A DNA stretch of 64,000 bases from Terriglobia bacterium. GTDB lineage: Bacteria; Acidobacteriota; Terriglobia; 2-12-FULL-54-10. Below the pieces are notes generated by a model. It ran no database searches and was not told where the DNA came from. It saw only the letters and a list, made by a program, of their open reading frames with translations. Position numbers and translations under genes: made by a program. Positions 3,233 to 60,058 of the stretch are shown piece after piece (within the stretch, counting starts at the first letter, position 1; the number at the start of each line of letters is the position of its first letter). Location: contig CAXVYR010000003.1 in assembly GCA_963666975.2 (NCBI GenBank), forward strand, positions 1,280,001 to 1,344,000, in the 5' to 3' direction.

Positions 3233-6200
3233 TCAAAATAGGAGTTTCAGTCCAAGCTGAAGCTGGCGAGAAGGCCCTGCGTTGAAAAGACGTCCGAAGT
3301 TGTTGGAACCGAAAATACGGCCCGGAGCGCCCACAAAATTGGTATGGTTGAGCAGGTTGAAAATCTCGGTCCTAAATTCCAACCGAGTTCCCTCGCTGAT
3401 CGGGATGTTCTTGAGCAGAGAGAAGTCAATTCTGCTTTCCCCGGCCTCGAAGACGAGATTTCTACCGGCATTGCCGAAGGTAAAGGGCTCCGGCATTTCG
3501 AAAGCCTCCGTATCGAACCAGCGTTCCGGAGTGCCGGAATCCAGGTTGGGGTTCCGCAAGAGATTCGGGCGCTGGGCCGGCCCGGCGCCGATGTTGGCAT
3601 TGTCGGAGCCGAGATTGACGGTAATAGGTGCGCCGGTTTGAAAGGTCCCAATTCCCGTGGCTGTCCACCCTTCCAGCAGCTTTCCCAGCCAGCCGGAAGG
3701 CTGGAAGGAGTGCCCCGGACCAAAGGGGAACTCGTAGGAATAGGTAAATACAAAGCGATGGCGATGGTCGAAGCTCGAAAGACCCTTCTCCGCCCCCATG
3801 TTTCTTACATCCTGCGGCAAATTGAACTCGTGGAAAGTAGGTCCCGGACTGGAGGCGTCATCAATCGATTTGGACCAGGTATAGTTGGCGTCGAACGTCA
3901 AGCCGCGAGAATACCGTTTTTCCAGCTTCAAGCTCAGTGAATTGTAACTGGAATAACCGTCCCAGCGGATGGTTCTAAAGCCGCTTAATTTCGGATTGGG
4001 ACGGCGGGTATCAATGTCCCCGGGACCAGGCTCTGGAACGTTCAGGAGCGTGCGGCTGTCGGCGCCCACCACTTTTGAGCCAAAGTAGGTGGCCTGCACC
4101 GCCCAGTTGGGCGACAACATCCGCTGCAGGCTAAAGGTCCAGGACTCGGCATATTCGGAGCGGTACTTATAATCCAAGCCGTCACCGCCGATGCTGCCGG
4201 TGGTGGGAGCCTGCAGAATGTTCTCGGTTGTCAGCGTAGGAATCTGAGTATCCGCAGCGGTGGTGACGCTCTTATTGAAATAAAAGGGAAGATTCAACGC
4301 CAGGCCCGTCTGAATGCCATATGCAGCCTGATTAAAAAACAGACCGAAGCCTGCACGCACCACCGTCTTTTCGGAACCGCGCGGCGACCACGCCAAACCG
4401 AAACGCGGCGCTACGCGGTGAAAGTTGGGCCGCTGCAAAGACCGGTCATAGCCGGCTTCTTTCGATGTGACGTAGGGCACGCCATTCTCGTCCAGCACGT
4501 TCAGCAAGGCATTGGCGTCCGGGTGAATATTTCCCTCATCATCGCTGGCGATGACGAAGCGGTCCAATTCGATGTTGGCAAGCCGGTTCCCCGTCTCCAC
4601 CATCTGTGTATTGATCTCGTAACGCACGCCGGCATTCACCGTCAGATTCTGATTCACCCGCCAGTCATCCTGCCCATAGAAGTGCATCCAGGTAGTGCGG
4701 CCATCTTCCTCTCCCCGGCCAATGCCTCCCTGGGCATTGGAGGGATAGCCCAGCAAAAAATCGGCAAAGGCGTTCCCGTCCGCCAAGCCTGCCGTCGAAG
4801 AAGAAAACCGGGGCGTAAAGGCGAAAGAGCCTCGGGTATTGGGGGAGGTCAGGGGGTTAAACCGCAAACGGTAGAAGTAAACTCCGAATTTCATGTTGTG
4901 GGAGCCACGGATCCAGGAAAGATTGTTGAAAAAGTCGAAGCTGTTGTTGCGGCGGCTGACCAGGCTGCCGGGATCTCCCATCGCGCTGTAGGCGTCGGAA
5001 AAACTGAAGGCGGGGAAGCCCGCTTTGCGCGGGTCTCGCGTCACGCCCTGCAGGCCGGACTGCCCGGCAAAATCAATCCCCTGGTTTTCACTCTCCTGTC
5101 CGCCGGTGACCCGAAGAAACCCGAAGCGGAATTCATTGATGAGGCTCGGGCTAAAAATATGCGTTTCACTTAGGGCGATGTTCCGAGTGAATGTTGTGAT
5201 TTCATACCCAAATCCCGGCACCAGAACTTCATTGAGATTGCTGTTTCCGAAAGGCTGGAAGGTGACAAAATTGGCGAAGTAGAAGCGCCCGAACAAACTG
5301 TCGTTCTGGCTCAGGTAATGGTCCGTCCGAACGATGAACTGATTGTGATCGTTCTTGAGGTTGGGCGAAGCGACAAAATTCTGCACTTCTCCGGGCAGGT
5401 TGGGGAGGGGCGCCTTCTCCAAGAAAGAACGCGCCACCGGATCCAGCCGGTCAGCCGGGATGCGGTTGCCAGGGAAGGGCCGCCGCTCTCCGGTGACGGG
5501 GTCCGTGGTTAAAGGATCATAAATAGTGGGCAAGCCGGAAAAATCCCCTGTGCGGACATTCTCCGAAGGCAAAGAGAACGTTCGGGTAAGGGTTCGACGC
5601 TCCCGGAATCCTTCATAGTTCAGAAAAAAGAAGGTCTGGTCCTTCTGGATGGGGCCGCCCAAGACTCCGCCAAACTGGTTTTGTCGCAACGGGGGTGGTT
5701 CCGAACCGGCAAAGAAATTCCTGGCGTCGAAAACGTCGTTTCTCAGAAACTCGTAGACGGAACCATGCAGGGAATTGCTGCCCGCCTTGGTGGCGGCATT
5801 GACATTGGCCGAGGCCTTTCCCCCGAATTCCGCAGCGTAAATGGATTTCTGAATCTTGAACTCCTGGATGGCATCGATTGAAGGAGAAGCCACCAAGTTA
5901 TTGAAATATTGGTCGGTAATAGAAACGCCATCCAGAAAATACATATTGTGTCCGGCCCGTTGTCCTCCGACCAAGACCTGCCGGCCCGTTTGTGCCAGGG
6001 CCGCTCCCCGGTTCCCAACCGGACTCAGGTATACGTTGTCGCTCAAAAGCGTGAGTTGCAGGAATTGCCTGCCATTCAACGGCAGATCCACGATTCGCTG
6101 ATTCGCAATCACCTCGCTCACCTCGGCGTTGGTCGTCCGCATGAGTGGAACCGCCTCCGTGACGGTAATCTGCTCGGTGACATCGCCCAATTCCATGACC

Positions 6201-55728: not shown

Positions 55729-55977
55729 ATGTTTATTTCAATGCAAAATGCAAGGATTTGTCTTGACTGCGATACCGTATTTGAAGAAACGAACTGCCCT
55801 CGCTGCAGCAGCGAAAGCTTCCACCCCCTGAGCAGATGGATTCGGCCTGCCATAGCCGCCGAACCGGTTGCCTTGGCCAAGAAAACAAGAAATGCCTCCC
55901 TCTTGTTGCTGGCTTCCGGGATTGCGTTTGCGGCTTGGCATTTTTTCACAAAGCCTGACAACAACTCGCCGAAGTGA
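55729..55977 (+). CDS. Small putative zinc-ribbon protein with C-terminal TM segment
   Basis: CLDC-x8-CPRC; hydrophobic LLLLASGIAFAAW; TATAAT at ~55692 upstream. Confidence 0.6.
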   Translation: MFISMQNARICLDCDTVFEETNCPRCSSESFHPLSRWIRPAIAAEPVALAKKTRNASLLLLASGIAFAAWHFFTKPDNNSPK

Positions 55978-56086
55978 TTTTTTACGCCGCCACCCTTCGC
56001 GCCGGAACATTCAGTGGCTGGCGCAAGTTCCCATTCTCCTCCTGCGCCCATCCGGGAACTTCTGTGCTACACTGCCCCAAAATTGC

Positions 56087-57805
56087 ATGTTGCAACATCT
56101 GCACATTGAGAATTACGCTCTGATTGAGTCCCTGGACCTGGAGTTCCACCCCGGCTTCAATCTGCTGACGGGGGAAACAGGAAGCGGCAAGTCGATTATC
56201 GTGGACGCCGTGGGGCTGCTTCTGGGCGAAAAGGCGTCGGCGGAGATGATCCGCGGCGGAGCAGACCGGGCGAGGATCTCCGCAGTTTTTTCCTTTTCAC
56301 CATCTCCCGCTTCCGGGCATGCCGAGCACCGCCTCCATCCGCTGAAGCAGCTTCTTGCCGAAGCGGGGCTGGCCAGCCAGGAAAAGGAAGACCTCATCCT
56401 GCAACGAGACCTTTTGCTCGGCGGGAAGTCCCGAGCTTTTGTGAATCATCAGCCTGCCACCGTAGCGATGCTCAAATCTTTGGCTCCTTTTCTGACGGAG
56501 GTCCACGGCCAGAATGAGCAGCAGGAGCTATTTTCCCCGCACGTTCAACTGGAGATGCTCGACCGCTTCGGCGGCCTCGCCGCTCTGGCAGCCACTGTTC
56601 GAGAGCAGTTTAACCTTTGGAAAGACCTCCGTCGCCAGCAGGAAGGCTTGGCTAAGCAGGCGCAAGAGCGGCTGCGGCAGATGGACCTGTGGCAGTTTCA
56701 GAAACGCGAGATCGAACAAGCCGCAATCACTCCCGGCGAAGATCAGCGGTTGGAAGAGGAAAAACTGCTGCTCGCCCATGCAGCGAAGATACAGGCCAGC
56801 CTGGCCGCTTCATTTGATCTGCTTTATGACTCCTCCCACTCCGCTGTCGCCTCCACGGCGTCTGCCAGCAAGAAGCTGGAGGAGGTGCTGCCCTATGACG
56901 CCACCTTGAAACCGCTGGCCGAGGCCTTGCAGTCGGCCCAGGTCTCGCTGGAAGACGTTTCGCTGAGCTTGCGCGACCGATTGTCCGGGATCGAGTCCAA
57001 CCCTCAACGGCTGGAGGAGGTGGAAAACCGGCTTGCCTTGCTGGAACGGCTCAAGAGAAAGTACGGTCCGACGCTGGAGGAGGTGCAAGCTTACGGGGAG
57101 CAGGTGTCGGCGCAAATCCAGGAGACGGAATCGAGCGAGGCGCTCAGCCAATCCCTCGCAGCAAAGCTTGATGAGACCGCGGCTGCTTATCAGAAGAATG
57201 CTGAGGAACTGTCCCGCAGACGGCAGAAGGCTGGCCGGGAACTGAAAGCGGATGTCGAAAAGGAATTGAAGGCGCTGGCCATGAAGGGAACGGTGTTTGA
57301 GGTCCGGTTCACAACCTCGGCCGCCGAAGCGGATTGGCGCGCCTCGGGAATCGACCGGGCCGAATTTCTGATCTCCCCCAACCCCGGAGAGCCGCTCAAG
57401 CCCCTGGCCCGGATCGCCTCCGGCGGGGAGATTTCCCGCACGATGCTGGCGCTGGAAACCGTCCTCGACGCCCGGCGGTGTTCCGGCGGCACAGACCATG
57501 CGCTTATTTTCGACGAGGTGGACGCCGGCATCGGGGGGCGCGCCGCCGAAACGGTGGGCAAAAAGCTGCGGCAGTTGGGGAAACACCGCCAAGTGCTTTG
57601 CGTAACCCATCTGCCACAGATCGCCAGCTTCGCGCATCACCACTTCCGTGTGGAAAAAAGCGAGCGCAACCGGCGGACAACCACCCAGGTCAAATATCTC
57701 GACGGAGAGCAACGCACGGCGGAATTGGCGCGGATGCTGAGCGGCAGCCAGATTACGGATGCCGGAATGAAACATGCGGCACAGTTACTGAAGGCGAATT
57801 CGTAG
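56087..57805 (+). CDS. recN: DNA repair protein RecN
   Basis: MLQHLHIENYALIE, TGETGSGKS, ASGGEISR, FDEVDAGIGG, VTHLPQIA, ELARML. Confidence 0.97.
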   Translation: MLQHLHIENYALIESLDLEFHPGFNLLTGETGSGKSIIVDAVGLLLGEKASAEMIRGGADRARISAVFSFSPSPASGHAEHRLHPLKQLLAEAGLASQEKEDLILQRDLLLGGKSRAFVNHQPATVAMLKSLAPFLTEVHGQNEQQELFSPHVQLEMLDRFGGLAALAATVREQFNLWKDLRRQQEGLAKQAQERLRQMDLWQFQKREIEQAAITPGEDQRLEEEKLLLAHAAKIQASLAASFDLLYDSSHSAVASTASASKKLEEVLPYDATLKPLAEALQSAQVSLEDVSLSLRDRLSGIESNPQRLEEVENRLALLERLKRKYGPTLEEVQAYGEQVSAQIQETESSEALSQSLAAKLDETAAAYQKNAEELSRRRQKAGRELKADVEKELKALAMKGTVFEVRFTTSAAEADWRASGIDRAEFLISPNPGEPLKPLARIASGGEISRTMLALETVLDARRCSGGTDHALIFDEVDAGIGGRAAETVGKKLRQLGKHRQVLCVTHLPQIASFAHHHFRVEKSERNRRTTTQVKYLDGEQRTAELARMLSGSQITDAGMKHAAQLLKANS

Positions 57806-57838
57806 CCCGCCGCAATCTCTCTCCTGAGCGTTCGGGAT

Positions 57839-57927
57839 CCGCTTGCTGAGAGCCTGCCCTGAGCCATGTCCTGAGCAAAGCCGAGGGAGAAGTCGAAGGG
57901 AGCTTGCCGAAGGGCGCGCGGCTCTGA
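57839..57927. repeat. Family B REP with multiply nested CCTGAGC...CGAAGGG mini-repeats
   Basis: CCGCTTGCT[...]CGCGCGGCTCTGA shell enclosing repeated CTGAGC and CGA(A/G)GG units. Confidence 0.7.
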
Positions 57928-57988
57928 CTACACATTCATTGTGAAAGTATAATAGCATTGTGAAAGTGTATTAGAGCCGTTGCCAGCC

Positions 57989-58018
57989 TTGACAGTGGGA
58001 ACCGCCTGTTCGTATAGT
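57989..58018 (+). promoter_or_regulatory. Putative sigma70 promoter of the selenoprotein operon
   Basis: TTGACA (57989-57994), 18-bp spacer containing GAAC-N5-GTTC dyad, TATAGT (58013-58018). Confidence 0.6.
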
Positions 58019-58043
58019 TAAATCGAGGATAGGCAAAACCGTC

Positions 58044-58364
58044 ATGGAATCTAATCCGAAACGCGCAGGCGTTGTGGCCATTGCAGCCGCTCTGCTGGCG
58101 CCCAGTTGATGAGTGCTTCCTCAAGTCCTGGCAGGACTTGGCTTATTGTCGCTGTTGAGCGCCAGCTGCCTGTTCTGGCTGGAACGGTTGCAGCCGGTCT
58201 TCATCACGATGGCGGTGGGCGCGCTGGCCTACGAGGGTTGGCTGGTGCATCGGCGTCCCCGGTTCCTCCGGACACGGGGAATTCTGGCCATCCTTTGGGG
58301 GAGCATCGTCATCAATATATTAGTGCTGGGAGCCTGGGTGGTGCTGTGGTTTCGTTATCGATGA
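58044..58364 (+). CDS. MerT-like heavy-metal transporter, putative selenoprotein with tandem Sec-Sec (TGA TGA at 58107-58112)
   Basis: MESNPKRAGVVAIAAALLAPS-U-U-VLPQVLAGLG...LERLQPVF...three TM segments; UU sits where MerT has ASxCCxxP; hairpin 58122-58140. Confidence 0.82.
58122..58140 (+). promoter_or_regulatory. Candidate bacterial SECIS hairpin
   Basis: CAAGTCCT-GGC-AGGACTTG perfect 8-bp stem, G-containing loop ~18-21 nt after the two UGA codons. Confidence 0.7.
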
Positions 58365-58403
58365 CGGTTTCCAGGATCGGTTTGGTCCACTGAGGAGATG
58401 CAA

Positions 58404-58880
58404 ATGAGCCACGTGAAGTCGCTTTGCCTGCTGTTCCTGCTATCGTTGCTCTCTGCGGTGGCCGCCCCGGCTCAGGTGGAGACGGTTGCGGCGCGGGCCA
58501 GCGGCATCACCTGAGCATCCTGCGCGGTGATCATGGAGATCGCCCTCAGACGCCTGGATGGCGTTGATCAAGTGACAATCAGCATTCAACAGCAGGCCCT
58601 GTCAGTGACCCTGAAACCAGGAAGCAGGTTCGATCCCCAGGGCATCCGGGACGCCGTAGCTCGGGCCGATGTGTCGATTCTCCGCTTCTACGTCGAGGCG
58701 CGCGGACAGGTGGAGCAAAAGGGGGACGAGCGTTACTTCGTCGCCGGCAAAGACCGCTTCCTGCTGGTCGCCTCTCGCGATGTTCCCGCCGGAGAGCCCA
58801 TTTGGGTCAACGCCTTGGTTGACGACAACACCAACCCCCTCCAGATGAGAGTAAACGAACACAAACCGCTCGAGCCATGA
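58404..58880 (+). CDS. Periplasmic MerP/HMA-domain protein, putative selenoprotein (TGA at 58512-58514, UxxC)
   Basis: GAGGAG RBS, signal peptide, then SGIT-U-ASC-AVIMEIALRRLDGVDQVTIS matching the HMA GMTCxxC...ALxxLxGV pattern. Confidence 0.85.
58526..58544 (+). promoter_or_regulatory. Candidate bacterial SECIS hairpin
   Basis: GGTGATC-ATGGA-GATCGCC 7-bp stem (one G-U pair) starting 11 nt after the UGA; lower stem CATCC/GGATG. Confidence 0.65.
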
Positions 58881-59323
58881 GCGCCTCCGCACAAAGCGAC
58901 AAGTCAGAATCCGCACGATATGCCGGACTGTTCCGGAGTCCTGTCCTAGACCACTTTCACCATCCGCGTAATGTCGGTGTCGCCGCCGGACACAACCAGT
59001 CCTTTCTGGAGCAAGACAACCCGTGGCAGGTCCGGTTGCGATTCACCCTGCGTGTGGAGCAAGACGGCATCGCGGAGGTAAAGTTCCAGGCGCAAAGTTG
59101 CGTCACCACCACGGCCTCGGCCAGCGCGCTGACCGTGATGGCCCAGGGAAAACGTGTGGAGGAGGCGTTGGCCATCACTCCCGAACAGCTTTCGAGGGAG
59201 CTGGGAACGGTTCCCCCCGAAAAGATGTACTGCTGCCAACTGGCCGTGGCAACGCTTCAGAAAGCTTTGCGGTCGCCGGAACAGGCCAGTTCCGAGACGC
59301 CCGCAGAGGTGAACAAGGAGTGA
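58877..59323 (+). CDS. IscU/NifU N-terminal-like scaffold protein, atypical
   Basis: VLDHFHHPRNVG, KFQAQSC, ASASALT, GKRVEEA, PPEKMYCC; ATGA overlap with upstream gene. Confidence 0.88.
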   Translation: MSASAQSDKSESARYAGLFRSPVLDHFHHPRNVGVAAGHNQSFLEQDNPWQVRLRFTLRVEQDGIAEVKFQAQSCVTTTASASALTVMAQGKRVEEALAITPEQLSRELGTVPPEKMYCCQLAVATLQKALRSPEQASSETPAEVNKE

Positions 59324-59517
59324 TTACTGCGGAACAAATCGGCGGCATGACGGTCCTCGATGCGCTGGACCTGTCACCGGAGGTGCGGCGCTACCTGCTG
59401 CGCCGGCTTCCCGAGATATGATGCTGGCCGGGGGAAACCCTCGAAGCGGTCGCTTTGAAAAAGAAGATGGACCTGGACGCGCTGGTCCGCATGATTCAGA
59501 CCATCCTCGCTAAATAG
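59320..59517 (+). CDS. Small DUF1858/ScdA_N-like protein, putative selenoprotein (TGA at 59419-59421, U-C)
   Basis: GTGA overlap; MITAEQIGGMTVLDALDLSPEVRRYLLRRLPEI-U-C-WPGETLEAVALKKKMDLDALVRMIQTILAK; family-like pattern on both sides of the TGA. Confidence 0.75.
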
Positions 59518-60058
59518 CGAAGATTTCCTTGATCGGCGCGCGAAAACCGGGGAGGACTGGCCCACCATCCAATTCCTGGTCGGCAGTGAGGACTTTTACA
59601 TCCTGGAGAGAACGATAAACGGTGACTCGCTGATTGGCGGGATCAACCACCCAAACCAAAGGGACTCCGGCCGTCAGGTACTCCTCGACCTTTTTTTGGA
59701 TTTCGCTGGCCGTGTCTTCCGGCGAGAGCACCTCGACAGCCAAATCGGGAGGAAACTCGGCAAACTTCTCAGGAATGCCTTCCTTGGCGATACGGTCCTT
59801 CGAAATGAACGCCACATCGGGAGCGCGCAGCGTGTCCGGGTTCCGGCTGAGGTAGAAGCCGCCCTCCGGGCCAACGAGGCCACACCTGTTCTCCGTCACA
59901 TAGTTTCCCAATAACCGATTCAAATTGGAAACAACCGCAGCATGTCGTATTCCCACAGGCGTCATCGGAATCAACTCTCCCTTGGACAACTCATAGCGGC
60001 TGCCATCGGCCACGATTTTCCAGAGGTCTTCACCGGTCAGAAGCGTTTTTGTGCGCAT
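59510..60058 (-). CDS. Uma2 family (DUF820) endonuclease-like protein
   Basis: RYEL..GEL, RAPDVAF, PDLAVEVLSP, KVEEYLTAGV..VWVVDP, VLPGF. Confidence 0.93.
   Translation of the reverse strand: MRTKTLLTGEDLWKIVADGSRYELSKGELIPMTPVGIRHAAVVSNLNRLLGNYVTENRCGLVGPEGGFYLSRNPDTLRAPDVAFISKDRIAKEGIPEKFAEFPPDLAVEVLSPEDTASEIQKKVEEYLTAGVPLVWVVDPANQRVTVYRSLQDVKVLTADQELDGGPVLPGFRAPIKEIFAI

Follow-up and report, generated by a model that had tools for sequence, protein, structure and literature searches.

A chromosomal locus of a soil-type acidobacterium (58044-59517 of the window, the 64,000-nucleotide stretch of DNA that was analysed) carries four co-directional genes, g1 to g4, three of which contain in-frame TGA codons, and comparison across relatives gives good support for reading all four of these codons as selenocysteine (Sec). 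We hold with moderate confidence that this operon is real and encodes three selenoproteins with four Sec residues (two in g1, one in g2, one in g4), and that g1 and g2 form the core of a MerP/MerT-like relay for a thiophilic cargo. The initial annotation had described both the tight packing of the four genes and the three TGA sites, and reading frames translated with TGA as Sec recover the same arrangement, as follows.

50795/50816-52174, minus strand: selA, encoding SelA, inside the window
55868-57805: recN, flanking gene
57989..58018, plus strand: sigma-70-like promoter site, TTGACA-18-TATAGT, 11/12 matches, a consensus match only
58044..58364, plus strand: g1, predicted MerT-like membrane selenoprotein, 106 aa
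58107..58112, plus strand: g1 TGA TGA, probably read as Sec-Sec; two TGAs in 8/8 orthologues of the order and at 42/42 loci
58122..58140, plus strand: g1 SECIS-like hairpin, 8-bp stem, 12 nt past the first TGA and 9 nt past the second
58404..58880, plus strand: g2, predicted secreted HMA/MerP-like selenoprotein, 158 aa
58512..58514, plus strand: g2 TGA (putative Sec37), first position of the HMA CxxC motif
58526..58544, plus strand: g2 SECIS-like hairpin, 7-bp stem, loop AUGGA, 11 nt past the TGA
58877..59323, plus strand: g3, IscU/NifU_N-like protein without Sec, 148 aa; its ATG overlaps the g2 stop
59320..59517, plus strand: g4, predicted ScdA_N/DUF1858-like selenoprotein, 65 aa; its GTG start overlaps the g3 stop
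59419..59421, plus strand: g4 TGA (putative Sec34), kept in G005, G007, G008 and L095; Cys form (CC) in P0127
59441..59458, plus strand: g4 SECIS-like hairpin, 7-bp stem, loop GGUC/AGUU, 19 nt past the TGA
59510-60058: Uma2-family gene, convergent flanking gene

The promoter proposed in the initial annotation is the site listed above; a consensus scan of the region returned two sigma-70-like sites against 0.5 expected, and the promoter region carries CATTGTGAAAGT repeats. As that annotation also stated, no merA, merR or P-type ATPase gene adjoins the operon, whose neighbours are recN and the Uma2-family gene. In three other studies, contigs span every TGA site with 0-3 differences over the stretch; none of the differences listed touches a TGA, 23 further ones being outside that listing. 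The codons are not assembly errors. In one metatranscriptome run, contigs of a relative ~92-95% alike cover 58035-58207, 58238-58708 and 58999-59280; as this type of library can contain DNA, such coverage is no proof of transcription.

Evidence for selenocysteine recoding

The genome encodes the complete Sec machinery, with every component over its curated cut-off: tRNA-Sec (72.8 bits, anticodon tca), SelB (372 bits), SelD (349 bits, from a gene with an in-frame TGA of its own) and SelA (563 bits), the product of the selA gene that the initial annotation had located within the window. Within the order, g1 is found in 8 of 14 genomes, including 6/6 high-quality ones, always with two TGAs, and a scan of 185,579 species genomes returned 42 loci from other genomes, each encoding the UU pair. 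At the motif column of g2, UxxC occurs at 15 of the 42 loci and CxxC at 27, most matches to the g2 family having one TGA. The TGA of g4 is retained in four further intact orthologues (listed above), and one homologue, P0127, has CC at the Sec-Cys position. Cys or a conserved TGA at the same columns is what would be anticipated of Sec sites.

Hairpins past each TGA had also been reported, and all three are present. Because single-sequence folding of the three post-TGA stretches, run alongside two stop-codon controls, gave energies no better than those of shuffles (z -0.08, -1.01 and -0.49), the hairpins were judged on comparative evidence, which is strong. The g1 hairpin is unchanged in 8/8 orthologues save for one G-U change; its 20-mer is identical at 31 of 39 loci, the other 8 altering only the loop or giving a wobble pair, and synonymous sites in the codons around it are frozen (5 of 7 columns invariant, against 0 of 33 elsewhere). 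In g2, three pairs show compensatory changes among 10 sequences, and the structure accompanies the codon: TGA forms average -14.0 kcal/mol and keep at least 6 of 7 pairs in 12 of 15 cases, whereas the hairpin is absent from TGC/TGT forms (mean -5.1 kcal/mol; 0 of 27). All seven pairs of the g4 hairpin are kept in five sequences, one of them by a compensatory change from A-U to G-C in two. An Rfam search over 57800-59700 with E up to 1 returned no SECIS family, only a chance match to sraL.

This pattern bears directly on the opposite reading, in which the TGAs are stops, the products being an 83-aa g1 that begins at a GTG past the TGAs and a 117-aa g2, or in which the genes are decaying. Public databases do present the genes this way: g1 is a protein of 70-83 aa in 119 of the 120 matches listed, typically an 83-residue "hypothetical protein" starting at the GTG just past UU, and g4 appears mostly as fragments of ~33 aa ending at the TGA. 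In one genome of the same genus (G001) there are further defects, a TAA in g3 and a frameshift plus TAG in g4, and both genes look decayed. Yet the parts upstream of the TGAs behave as protein. Over the 17 codons 5' of the g1 UU, amino acids are kept while synonymous sites vary, which argues that this part is coding; a truncated g2 would be without its signal peptide and metal motif; and TGA is retained at identities down to 35%. Together with Cys in place of Sec in homologues, hairpins that go with TGA and not with TGC/TGT, and complete machinery, this makes the absence of Sec very improbable.

Sec recoding at all four TGAs is thus well supported by comparative sequence evidence (complete machinery, conservation of the TGAs, Cys in matching columns of homologues, and SECIS-like hairpins), in agreement with the initial annotation's preference for recoding over nonsense mutations. 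SelB and tRNA-Sec would decode each UGA as Sec, with the hairpin that starts 9-19 nt downstream as guide, and in g1 a single hairpin would serve both adjacent UGAs.

The MerT-like and MerP-like core

The g1 protein has about three hydrophobic segments, with Sec22-Sec23 in the first, between two prolines (APS-U-U-VLPQ), and Cys42 of this segment is invariant in a 10-sequence alignment (A3). Aligned with a plasmid MerT from a merT-merP-merA operon (45% identity over 64 aa), its UU falls exactly on the CC of MerT (A-P-S-U-U-V-L-P against A-A-T-C-C-V-L-P), placing a Sec-Sec pair where MerT has the vicinal pair of its first transmembrane helix, and 11 of 11 weak tblastn matches of g1 in plasmids lie on annotated MerT genes. 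Scores stay under the MerT profile cut-offs, at 26.4 bits against 32.9 for Pfam PF02411 and 20-26.5 bits against 130-150 for the NCBIfam models NF010314 and NF033560. MerT has a second Cys pair on a cytoplasmic loop; in g1 this pair is missing, the loop (HRRPRFLRTRG) being without Cys, and there is no linkage of g1 to merA or merR. No Cys-Cys form of g1 was found among the 42 loci or the 11 database proteins examined, which would be uncommon if the site did nothing but bind metal and may indicate redox or chalcogen chemistry.

The g2 protein consists of a signal peptide ending in APA (followed by QVE), an HMA domain with GIT-U-ASC, and a five-strand beta domain. Its structure model (pLDDT 91.6) has the ferredoxin-like HMA fold, beta-alpha-beta-beta-alpha-beta with the metal motif on the first loop/helix, and CopZ, MerP and CCC2a are among the structures that the HMA domain matches (Foldseek TM up to 0.89; VIA Z up to 8.5). 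For the C-terminal domain (residues 91-155), PDB match lists are dominated by the HMA domain, with only weak matches falling on 92-157 (Z 5.1). With Sec read as Cys, g2 scores 22.5 bits against HMA (PF00403, cut-off 24.8) and 37.8 bits against MerP (TIGR02052, cut-off 92.55), below the threshold in each case; its best NCBIfam match is NF041115 (UxxU metal-binding (seleno)protein), at 41.4 bits against a cut-off of 95, the motif of g2 being UxxC instead of UxxU. On alignments, folds and profiles, the family assignments of the initial annotation (MerT, HMA/MerP and, more tentatively, ScdA_N/DUF1858 for g4) are right at the superfamily level.

The resemblance to MerT/MerP of mer operons (PF02411, PF00403, TIGR02052) lies in a small membrane protein with a vicinal chalcogen pair before Pro in its first hydrophobic segment, followed by a gene for a secreted HMA protein with the GxxCxxC pattern. 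Unlike MerT/MerP, g1 and g2 use Sec for Cys (UU, UxxC) and score under the family cut-offs, g2 has an additional C-terminal beta domain that MerP does not, the operon is without the cytoplasmic Cys pair, merA and merR, and the g1-g2 locus is chromosomal and conserved across an order, whereas mer is found on mobile elements.

Modules of MerT-like and HMA-like type that use Sec are already catalogued. They include NF045683 (MerT/CopZ fusion-like heavy metal transport selenoprotein) and other MerT-family selenoproteins, among them a "putative mercuric transport protein" with one Sec in the motif C/SxxU; a CU form is mentioned by Haft. These have one Sec per module or are fused, whereas the present operon keeps the two modules in separate genes and has two Sec side by side in g1; against NF045683 (cut-off 375 bits), g1 scores 14 bits and g2 28 bits. 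Sec at the first HMA motif position, as in g2, also occurs in NF041115 and in the Sec-containing HMA domains of P-type ATPases (UxxC), from which g2 differs in being secreted, in its extra beta domain, and in lying always beside a UU membrane protein. The UU motif is absent from the 119 selenoprotein families in the table of a 2026 review, and in the literature searched (main texts) nothing relevant turned up on UGA codons next to one another, or on vicinal selenocysteine, in bacteria. The initial annotation's impression of novelty can thus be narrowed: MerT-, HMA- and DUF1858-type selenoproteins are each catalogued, so that the kind is known, while the obligate Sec-Sec pair, the g1 family and the gene combination look undescribed. 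The family comprises at least 156 database clusters and 42 species-level genomes, nearly all versions being truncated at the Sec codons.

Distribution and accessory genes

Linkage identifies g1 and g2 as the conserved core. g2 lies directly 3' of g1 at 41 of the 42 loci, while g3 and g4 stand beside few of them, and genes of IscU-like, DsrE-like and ScdA_N-like type are accessory, occurring at a minority of the 42. The four-gene unit of the initial annotation stands as a linked arrangement at this locus, and the gene order expected of homologues holds widely for g1-g2 and in few genomes for the whole. Since g3 and g4 are missing at most loci and defective in G001, the core does not depend on them. 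Several orders occur: g1-g2-g3-g4 (G000, G001), g1-g2-g3-DsrE-g4 (G005), g1-g2-IscU'-DsrE' (L101) and IscU'-DsrE'-g1-g2 (L128), the DsrE-like neighbour scoring 23.4 bits against the Pfam DsrE cut-off of 22.7. Neighbour clustering across the 42 loci, in which many clusters were spurious high-GC antisense ORFs, gave no other gene to equal g1 and g2 in constancy. Judged by their representatives, clusters that recur at 5-15 loci each encode NHL-repeat, ankyrin, NosD-like beta-helix, methyltransferase and TonB-type proteins. In a sample of the phylum, g1 matches occurred in 2 of 401 genomes, namely its own genome and one weak match without TGA.

The g3 protein contains a clear NifU_N domain (PF01592; 84.4 bits, cut-off 22) and falls below the cut-offs of the equivalog models of IscU, NifU and SufU. 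Compared with IscU/SufU it keeps the second and third cluster Cys (Cys75 and Cys119), but the first is replaced by an invariant Trp (NPW; Trp50 in the alignment to 2z7e) and the His preceding the third by Tyr, leaving the usual three-Cys cluster site incomplete. An IscU paralogue elsewhere that had been flagged "1 TGA" (C2:110026-110388) is an ordinary gene, the TGA being its terminal stop.

The g4 protein has the motif D/E-I-U-C (PEI-U-CWPGETLE) and belongs to a tiny family (19 matches among 1.84 billion representatives). Against ScdA_N (PF04405) and DUF1858 (PF08984; TIGR03980) it scores 12.1, 14.2 and 13.3 bits, with cut-offs of 32-45, while its family profile matches ScdA 9r7j at E 0.03 with UC on CC. 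The nearest Foldseek matches to its model (pLDDT 93.8) are DUF1858 2k5e and 2k53 and the YtfE N-domain 5fnn (TMq 0.57-0.73, E at least 0.6). It may thus share the small helical fold of the ScdA_N domain of RIC/YtfE and of stand-alone DUF1858, differing from the former in having no hemerythrin domain and from the catalogued DUF1858 selenoprotein, whose motif is CxxU, in its vicinal U-C. YtfE, which bears an ScdA_N domain, binds IscU and IscS (PMC8117158), a precedent that may be set beside the position of g4 next to an IscU-like gene.

Proposed relay mechanism and candidate cargoes

The Sec signals, homology, linkage and motif alignment described above are observations; the transport direction, hand-off order and cargo we infer. 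In the relay that we prefer, g2 would act as a periplasmic MerP-like HMA protein that captures a thiophilic cargo; ligand exchange would then move the cargo from g2 onto the Sec-Sec pair of g1 in the membrane, and from there it would reach the cytoplasm. Because g1 is without the cytoplasmic Cys pair of MerT, soluble acceptors would have to take the cargo, and in this genome the candidates are g4 (ScdA_N-like, Sec-Cys) and g3 (IscU-like, two Cys). The initial annotation had proposed a relay for a soft metal (Hg, Cu, Ag, Au) or for selenium; homology to MerT/MerP suggests the relay itself and leaves the cargo divided between metal and chalcogen. We give a soft metal ion such as Cu(I) or Hg(II) slightly less than an even chance, a selenium or sulfur species a distinctly smaller one, and a redox relay with no cargo little chance, other explanations accounting for the rest.

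Classical mercury detoxification is unlikely, since the genome contains no MerA at cut-off (best 401 bits against 454) and HgcA was not found in it. The best MerA match is a 499-aa FAD disulfide reductase without the C-terminal CC. Import of Hg without a reductase would be harmful. The accessory genes (IscU-, DsrE- and ScdA_N-like) suit the handling of sulfur/selenium or Fe-S no less than that of Hg, Cu or Ag. Partners of the DsrE-like and IscU/SufU-like kinds belong to sulfur relays and are not metal chaperones, an observation that runs against a metal relay.

It is conceivable, if rather unlikely, that the g1-g2 cassette moves selenium (or sulfur) and not metal. Selenite, selenide or a polysulfide-type species would form a mixed Se/S adduct on g2 and cross the membrane by way of the Sec-Sec pair; carriers of DsrE-like and IscU/SufU-like type would receive it as perselenide or persulfide, in the end for SelD or cluster synthesis. 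DsrE-like and IscU-like genes adjoin g1-g2 in several of the gene orders above, the retention of only two of three cluster Cys in g3 might suit a sulfur acceptor, and an obligate UU with no CC form is easier to reconcile with chalcogen exchange than with simple metal binding. The review table includes Sec forms of sulfur-trafficking proteins (DsrE-like, rhodanese-like, YeeE/YedE), and, as weak evidence, the query used for YeeE/YedE-family transporters gave no match in this 98.9%-complete genome. A selenium pathway that itself depends on selenium would have a parallel in the genome, SelD being a selenoprotein. Both core proteins, however, are homologous to metal-handling families, the accessory genes occur at a minority of the 42 loci, and the query used for a DsrE-like gene gave no match in this genome. 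We are not aware of any HMA or MerT protein with a demonstrated role in carrying S or Se. A more specific form of this reading, which we regard as improbable, would make the g1 Sec-Sec an obligate membrane diselenol/diselenide centre, the first natural vicinal Sec-Sec and one made from two UGAs with one SECIS, and g1-g2 a selenium-dependent relay bringing selenium (or sulfur) to carriers of IscU, DsrE and ScdA_N type. If so, it would constitute a missing route of bacterial selenium acquisition in soil Acidobacteriota, annotated away as an 83-residue hypothetical protein.

Less probable still is a transmembrane redox relay, akin to DsbD/CcdA with selenium, in which the g1 Sec-Sec would cycle between diselenide and diselenol and pass reducing equivalents from a cytoplasmic g4 to the periplasmic g2. 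All three selenoproteins have pairs capable of forming a dichalcogenide (UU, UxxC, UC), NCBIfam TIGR03980 names DUF1858 a "redox disulfide domain", and the obligate Sec of g1 fits the kinetic demands of exchange reactions. Vicinal Cys-Sec is a redox centre in thioredoxin reductase. Such a relay would need a strained eight-membered diselenide ring within a membrane helix, g4 lies beside few g1-g2 loci, the neighbourhoods show no recurrent partner of thioredoxin-like or DsbD-like type, and the HMA and MerT families are not, to our knowledge, families of oxidoreductases.

Whatever the cargo of the preferred MerP/MerT-like relay, the linkage of carriers of this type to IscU-, DsrE- and ScdA_N-type proteins suggests a trafficking route for metal or selenium/sulfur outside mercury resistance. 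The g1 proteins add an unannotated selenoprotein family that gene callers and family libraries miss, so that selenoproteome counts for Acidobacteriota are too low. Two adjacent UGAs with one hairpin offer a direct test of how strict the bacterial SECIS-to-UGA distance is, and the core is a natural experiment on Sec use, in which Sec and Cys alternate freely in g2 (15 and 27 loci, respectively) beside a g1 never seen with Cys.

Four genes behind one promoter-like site

Direct reading of 57700-59900, with ORFs listed with and without TGA translated as selenocysteine (Sec, U), confirmed the four co-directional genes (g1-g4) with in-frame TGAs proposed in the initial annotation, whose coordinates and motifs proved correct; its sigma70-like promoter was likewise found.

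Features of the operon
57989-58018: promoter-like site TTGACA-18-TATAGT, a consensus match
58044-58364: g1, MerT-like membrane protein, 106 aa, ...LLAPS-U-U-VLPQVLAGLG...; TGA TGA at 58107-58112
58404-58880: g2, secreted HMA/MerP-like protein, 158 aa, hydrophobic leader to APA-QVE, then GIT-U-ASC; TGA at 58512-58514
58877-59323: g3, IscU/NifU_N-like protein, 148 aa, without internal stop; start codon ATG overlapping the g2 stop
59320-59517: g4, ScdA_N/DUF1858-like protein, 65 aa, ...LPEI-U-CWPGETLEAV...; GTG start overlaps the g3 stop; TGA at 59419-59421
Flanks: recN upstream of g1; a convergent Uma2-family gene downstream of g4

g1, g2 and g3 themselves end in TGA, so there is no wholesale reassignment of the codon. 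Three further studies yielded contigs that span the stretch and differ from it at 0-3 positions; no TGA is hit by the differences listed (23 more lay outside the listing), which excludes read or assembly errors as the source of these codons. These public contigs break exactly at the g1 hairpin, owing to a 36-mer (58119-58154) that a related organism present in those samples has as well. Just 5' of the promoter-like site lies a direct repeat, two copies of CATTGTGAAAGT at about 57937-57948 and 57956-57967, which is overlapped by a second promoter-like match (57924-57953) and could be a candidate operator for some regulator.

Decoding of the TGA codons

A g2 query matched 20 of 61 related genomes (12 of 13 within the window's own family), mostly with one in-frame TGA and at identities as low as 35%, and g1 occurs in 8 of 14 species genomes of the order, including all 6 of high quality, with two TGAs each time. 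A pattern scan across 185,579 species, each represented by a single genome, returned 42 loci, at least 4 of them from genomes also among the related genomes compared individually below; 37 are Acidobacteriota by record title (Terriglobia, Bryobacterales, Solibacteraceae, Vicinamibacterales, Luteitalea) and the other 5 carry different bin labels. g1 reads Sec-Sec (UU) in all 42 (PSUUVLPQ 38, PSUUMLPQ 3, PGUUVLPQ 1), with g2 directly 3' of it in 41. Amino acids 5' of UU are conserved while synonymous sites vary; this part of g1 is therefore coding and the start does not lie after the TGAs.

Homologues with Cys or TGA at the same columns, which the initial annotation proposed to look for, exist. 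The g2 motif is UxxC in 15 and CxxC in 27 of the 42 loci. The g4 family is tiny (19 matches among 1.84 billion representatives), consisting mostly of ~33-residue fragments that end exactly at the TGA; of its full-length members one has CC at the Sec column and one LC. No Cys form of g1 was seen among the 42 loci and 11 database proteins read. The best 120 database proteins for g1 are, with one exception, 70-83 residues long; 9 of the 11 inspected start at MLPQVL, right after UU, one further is a shorter fragment, and the sole 106-residue entry among them reads WW, TGA having been translated as Trp. The UU aligns with the Cys-Cys of true MerT from a plasmid merT-merP-merA operon (APSUUVLP and AATCCVLP; 45% identity over 64 residues).

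SECIS-like hairpins
g1: 8 bp, beginning 12 nt after the first TGA and 9 nt after the second
g2: 7-bp stem, beginning 11 nt after the TGA
g4: 7-bp stem with loop GGUC or AGUU, beginning 19 nt after the TGA

All 8 orthologues share the g1 hairpin exactly but for one A-to-G change, which leaves a G-U pair, and the hairpin's 20-mer is identical in 31 of the 39 loci caught by the hairpin pattern (which missed 3 of the 42), the other 8 having loop changes or wobble pairs only. Where the amino acid of a column is invariant and degenerate, the codon is invariant as well in 5/7 columns inside this hairpin versus 0/33 outside, a contrast that is plain despite relatedness, although its Fisher p of 3e-5 is overstated because the sequences are relatives. 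Three compensatory pairs occur in the g2 stem among 10 sequences, and the g4 stem is kept in 5/5 sequences with one compensatory pair. The two forms of g2 provide a natural control that is decisive: those with TGA (n=15) average -14.0 kcal/mol over nt 11-40 and retain at least 6 of 7 aligned pairs in 12 cases, whereas those with TGC/TGT (n=27) average -5.1 over the same stretch and none keeps the pairs. Single-sequence folding after the TGAs did no better than shuffles, and an Rfam search returned no family matching the hairpins.

The organism's genome (4.23 Mb, 98.9% complete) encodes the selB, selC and selD that the initial annotation wished to see confirmed: SelB (372 bits), tRNA-Sec (72.8 bits; ARAGORN call SeC, anticodon tca) and SelD (349 bits; contig C4:1360322-1361257, L017), with SelA on the minus strand of the window (563 bits). 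Full machinery, conserved TGAs, Cys at the same columns and a hairpin that tracks the TGA support the Sec interpretation, and the TGAs of the operon are very probably decoded as Sec. SelD itself contains an in-frame TGA and is a selenoprotein too. Another selenoprotein may be encoded elsewhere in this genome (contig C3:90509-91201, L139), where a sequence with one in-frame TGA weakly resembles the MerA-type FAD disulfide reductase family.

Protein families and catalogued selenoproteins

g1 and g2 are homologous to the MerT/MerP pair, with Sec on ligand positions. The likeness, already proposed in the initial annotation, is borne out by UU on the MerT CC and by the g2 fold, with profile scores under the cut-offs: g1 reaches 26.4 bits in Pfam (cut-off 32.9) and 26.5 bits against NCBIfam merT_RC607, and the best NCBIfam matches of g2 are a UxxU metal-binding selenoprotein (41 bits) and MerP (38 bits). 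All 11 weak plasmid matches of g1 fall on annotated MerT genes. g1 has about three hydrophobic segments, the first bearing UU flanked by two prolines, and Cys42 is invariant in a 10-sequence alignment; unlike that of MerT, its cytoplasmic loop is basic and without Cys. The g2 model (pLDDT 91.6) comprises an HMA domain (24-86), structurally matching CopZ, MerP, CCC2a and ZntA, and a five-strand beta domain (91-155) with no conserved Cys, His or Met. A second secreted protein of g2 type, with Sec (GIL-U-GDC), stands alone without a MerT-like neighbour at C4:113105-113554 (L042/L043, about 4971-5450), and several genomes of the family have this stand-alone paralogue too.

A secretion signal is present in g2 and absent from g3 and g4. 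g3 is a NifU_N protein (84 bits) which, compared with Aquifex IscU, has an invariant Trp (NPW) for the first cluster Cys and Tyr for the His before the third, keeping Cys75 and Cys119. g4 scores far under Pfam cut-offs; its family profile places DI-U-C on DF-C-C of ScdA (9r7j, E 0.03), and its model (pLDDT 93.8) is nearest the DUF1858 proteins 2k5e and 2k53 and the YtfE N-domain (TMq 0.57-0.73, E at least 0.6).

Selenoproteins of this kind are already known, since MerT-, HMA- and DUF1858-type members have been catalogued: reviews (PMC9312934, PMC13188914) name a putative mercuric transport protein with a single Sec (C/SxxU), HMA domains that contain Sec and a CxxU selenoprotein of the DUF1858 type, a preprint by Haft a small MerT-family group with a CU motif (10.1101/2022.07.06.499078), and NCBIfam (June 2026 release) a MerT/CopZ fusion-like selenoprotein besides the UxxU protein. 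No NCBIfam or Pfam model reaches cut-off on g1, g2 or g4. The UU motif is absent from the 119 families in Table 1 of PMC13188914, and the literature searched held neither an IscU-linked arrangement like g1-g2-g3-g4 nor any account of bacteria decoding neighbouring UGA codons as Sec, though supplements could still list these. The UU motif, the family and the gene combination, the last already taken as new in the initial annotation, thus look undescribed, and the kinds of selenoprotein are known. New would be an unannotated, obligately Sec-Sec MerT-like family with its MerP-like partner, joined here by an IscU-like protein and an ScdA_N-like selenoprotein.

Core pair, accessory module and candidate cargo

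The constant part of the locus is g1 and g2 only, so that the proposed four-gene unit stands for this pair; g3 and g4 are absent from most loci. An accessory module is made up of the IscU-like and ScdA_N-like genes and, in most cases between the two, a DsrE-like gene (Pfam DsrE 23.4 bits, cut-off 22.7).

Gene orders in the genomes compared (G) and in single loci (L)
G000, G001: g1-g2-g3-g4
G005 (L109): g1-g2-g3-DsrE-g4
L095: as G005, g3/DsrE junction truncated
G007: g3-DsrE-g4, on a separate short contig
G008: DsrE-g4
L101: g1-g2-IscU'-DsrE'
L128: IscU'-DsrE'-g1-g2

Module and core recur in varied gene orders, which speaks for a functional link. The core does not depend on the module, as shown by the module's absence from most loci and its apparent decay in G001. 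In G001 (same genus; L023/L094) g3 has a TAA and g4 a frameshift and TAG, g1 and g2 being intact, which is either decay of the module or error in that assembly. The DsrE-like protein of relatives has 112 aa and the motif CDQC(A/C)YERE (L109 6507-6842, L069, L062, L101, L128); none was detectable in the window's genome with the query used. Database protein P0134 (91 aa) has the end of g3 and the start of g4 in a single frame that runs to the g4 TGA, and suggests a fused or frame-shifted g3-g4 in one relative.

Classical mercury detoxification is unlikely, in agreement with the initial annotation: neither MerA nor MerR is linked, the genome has no MerA above cut-off, no HgcA was found in it, and the cassette lies on the chromosome and is conserved across an order. 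We propose that g2 would capture a thiophilic cargo in the periplasm and pass it to the membrane Sec-Sec site of g1 (plus Cys42), from which cytoplasmic acceptors would take it, here g4 with its Sec-Cys and g3 with its two Cys; the pair could together complete one putative site, and such a pairing has precedent, since the ScdA_N-bearing YtfE contacts IscU/IscS (PMC8117158). Cargo identity and transport direction we can only infer. Selenium or sulfur would fit the presence of DsrE-like and IscU/SufU-like partners, sulfur carriers already catalogued in Sec form, the lack of any YeeE/YedE transporter found in this genome, and a g1 never seen with Cys, whereas g2 alternates freely between Sec and Cys. 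A soft metal would fit the metal handling of, to our knowledge, all characterised relatives of both core families. A redox relay instead of cargo transport, for which all three motifs would be capable of dichalcogenide bonds, is the least supported.

In Bryobacterales- and Solibacteraceae-type loci a NosD-like right-handed beta-helix protein (25 bits) is often encoded just 5' of g1 (for example L107 4314-4970 and L112 2421-3572), and NHL-repeat and ankyrin-repeat proteins recur nearby.
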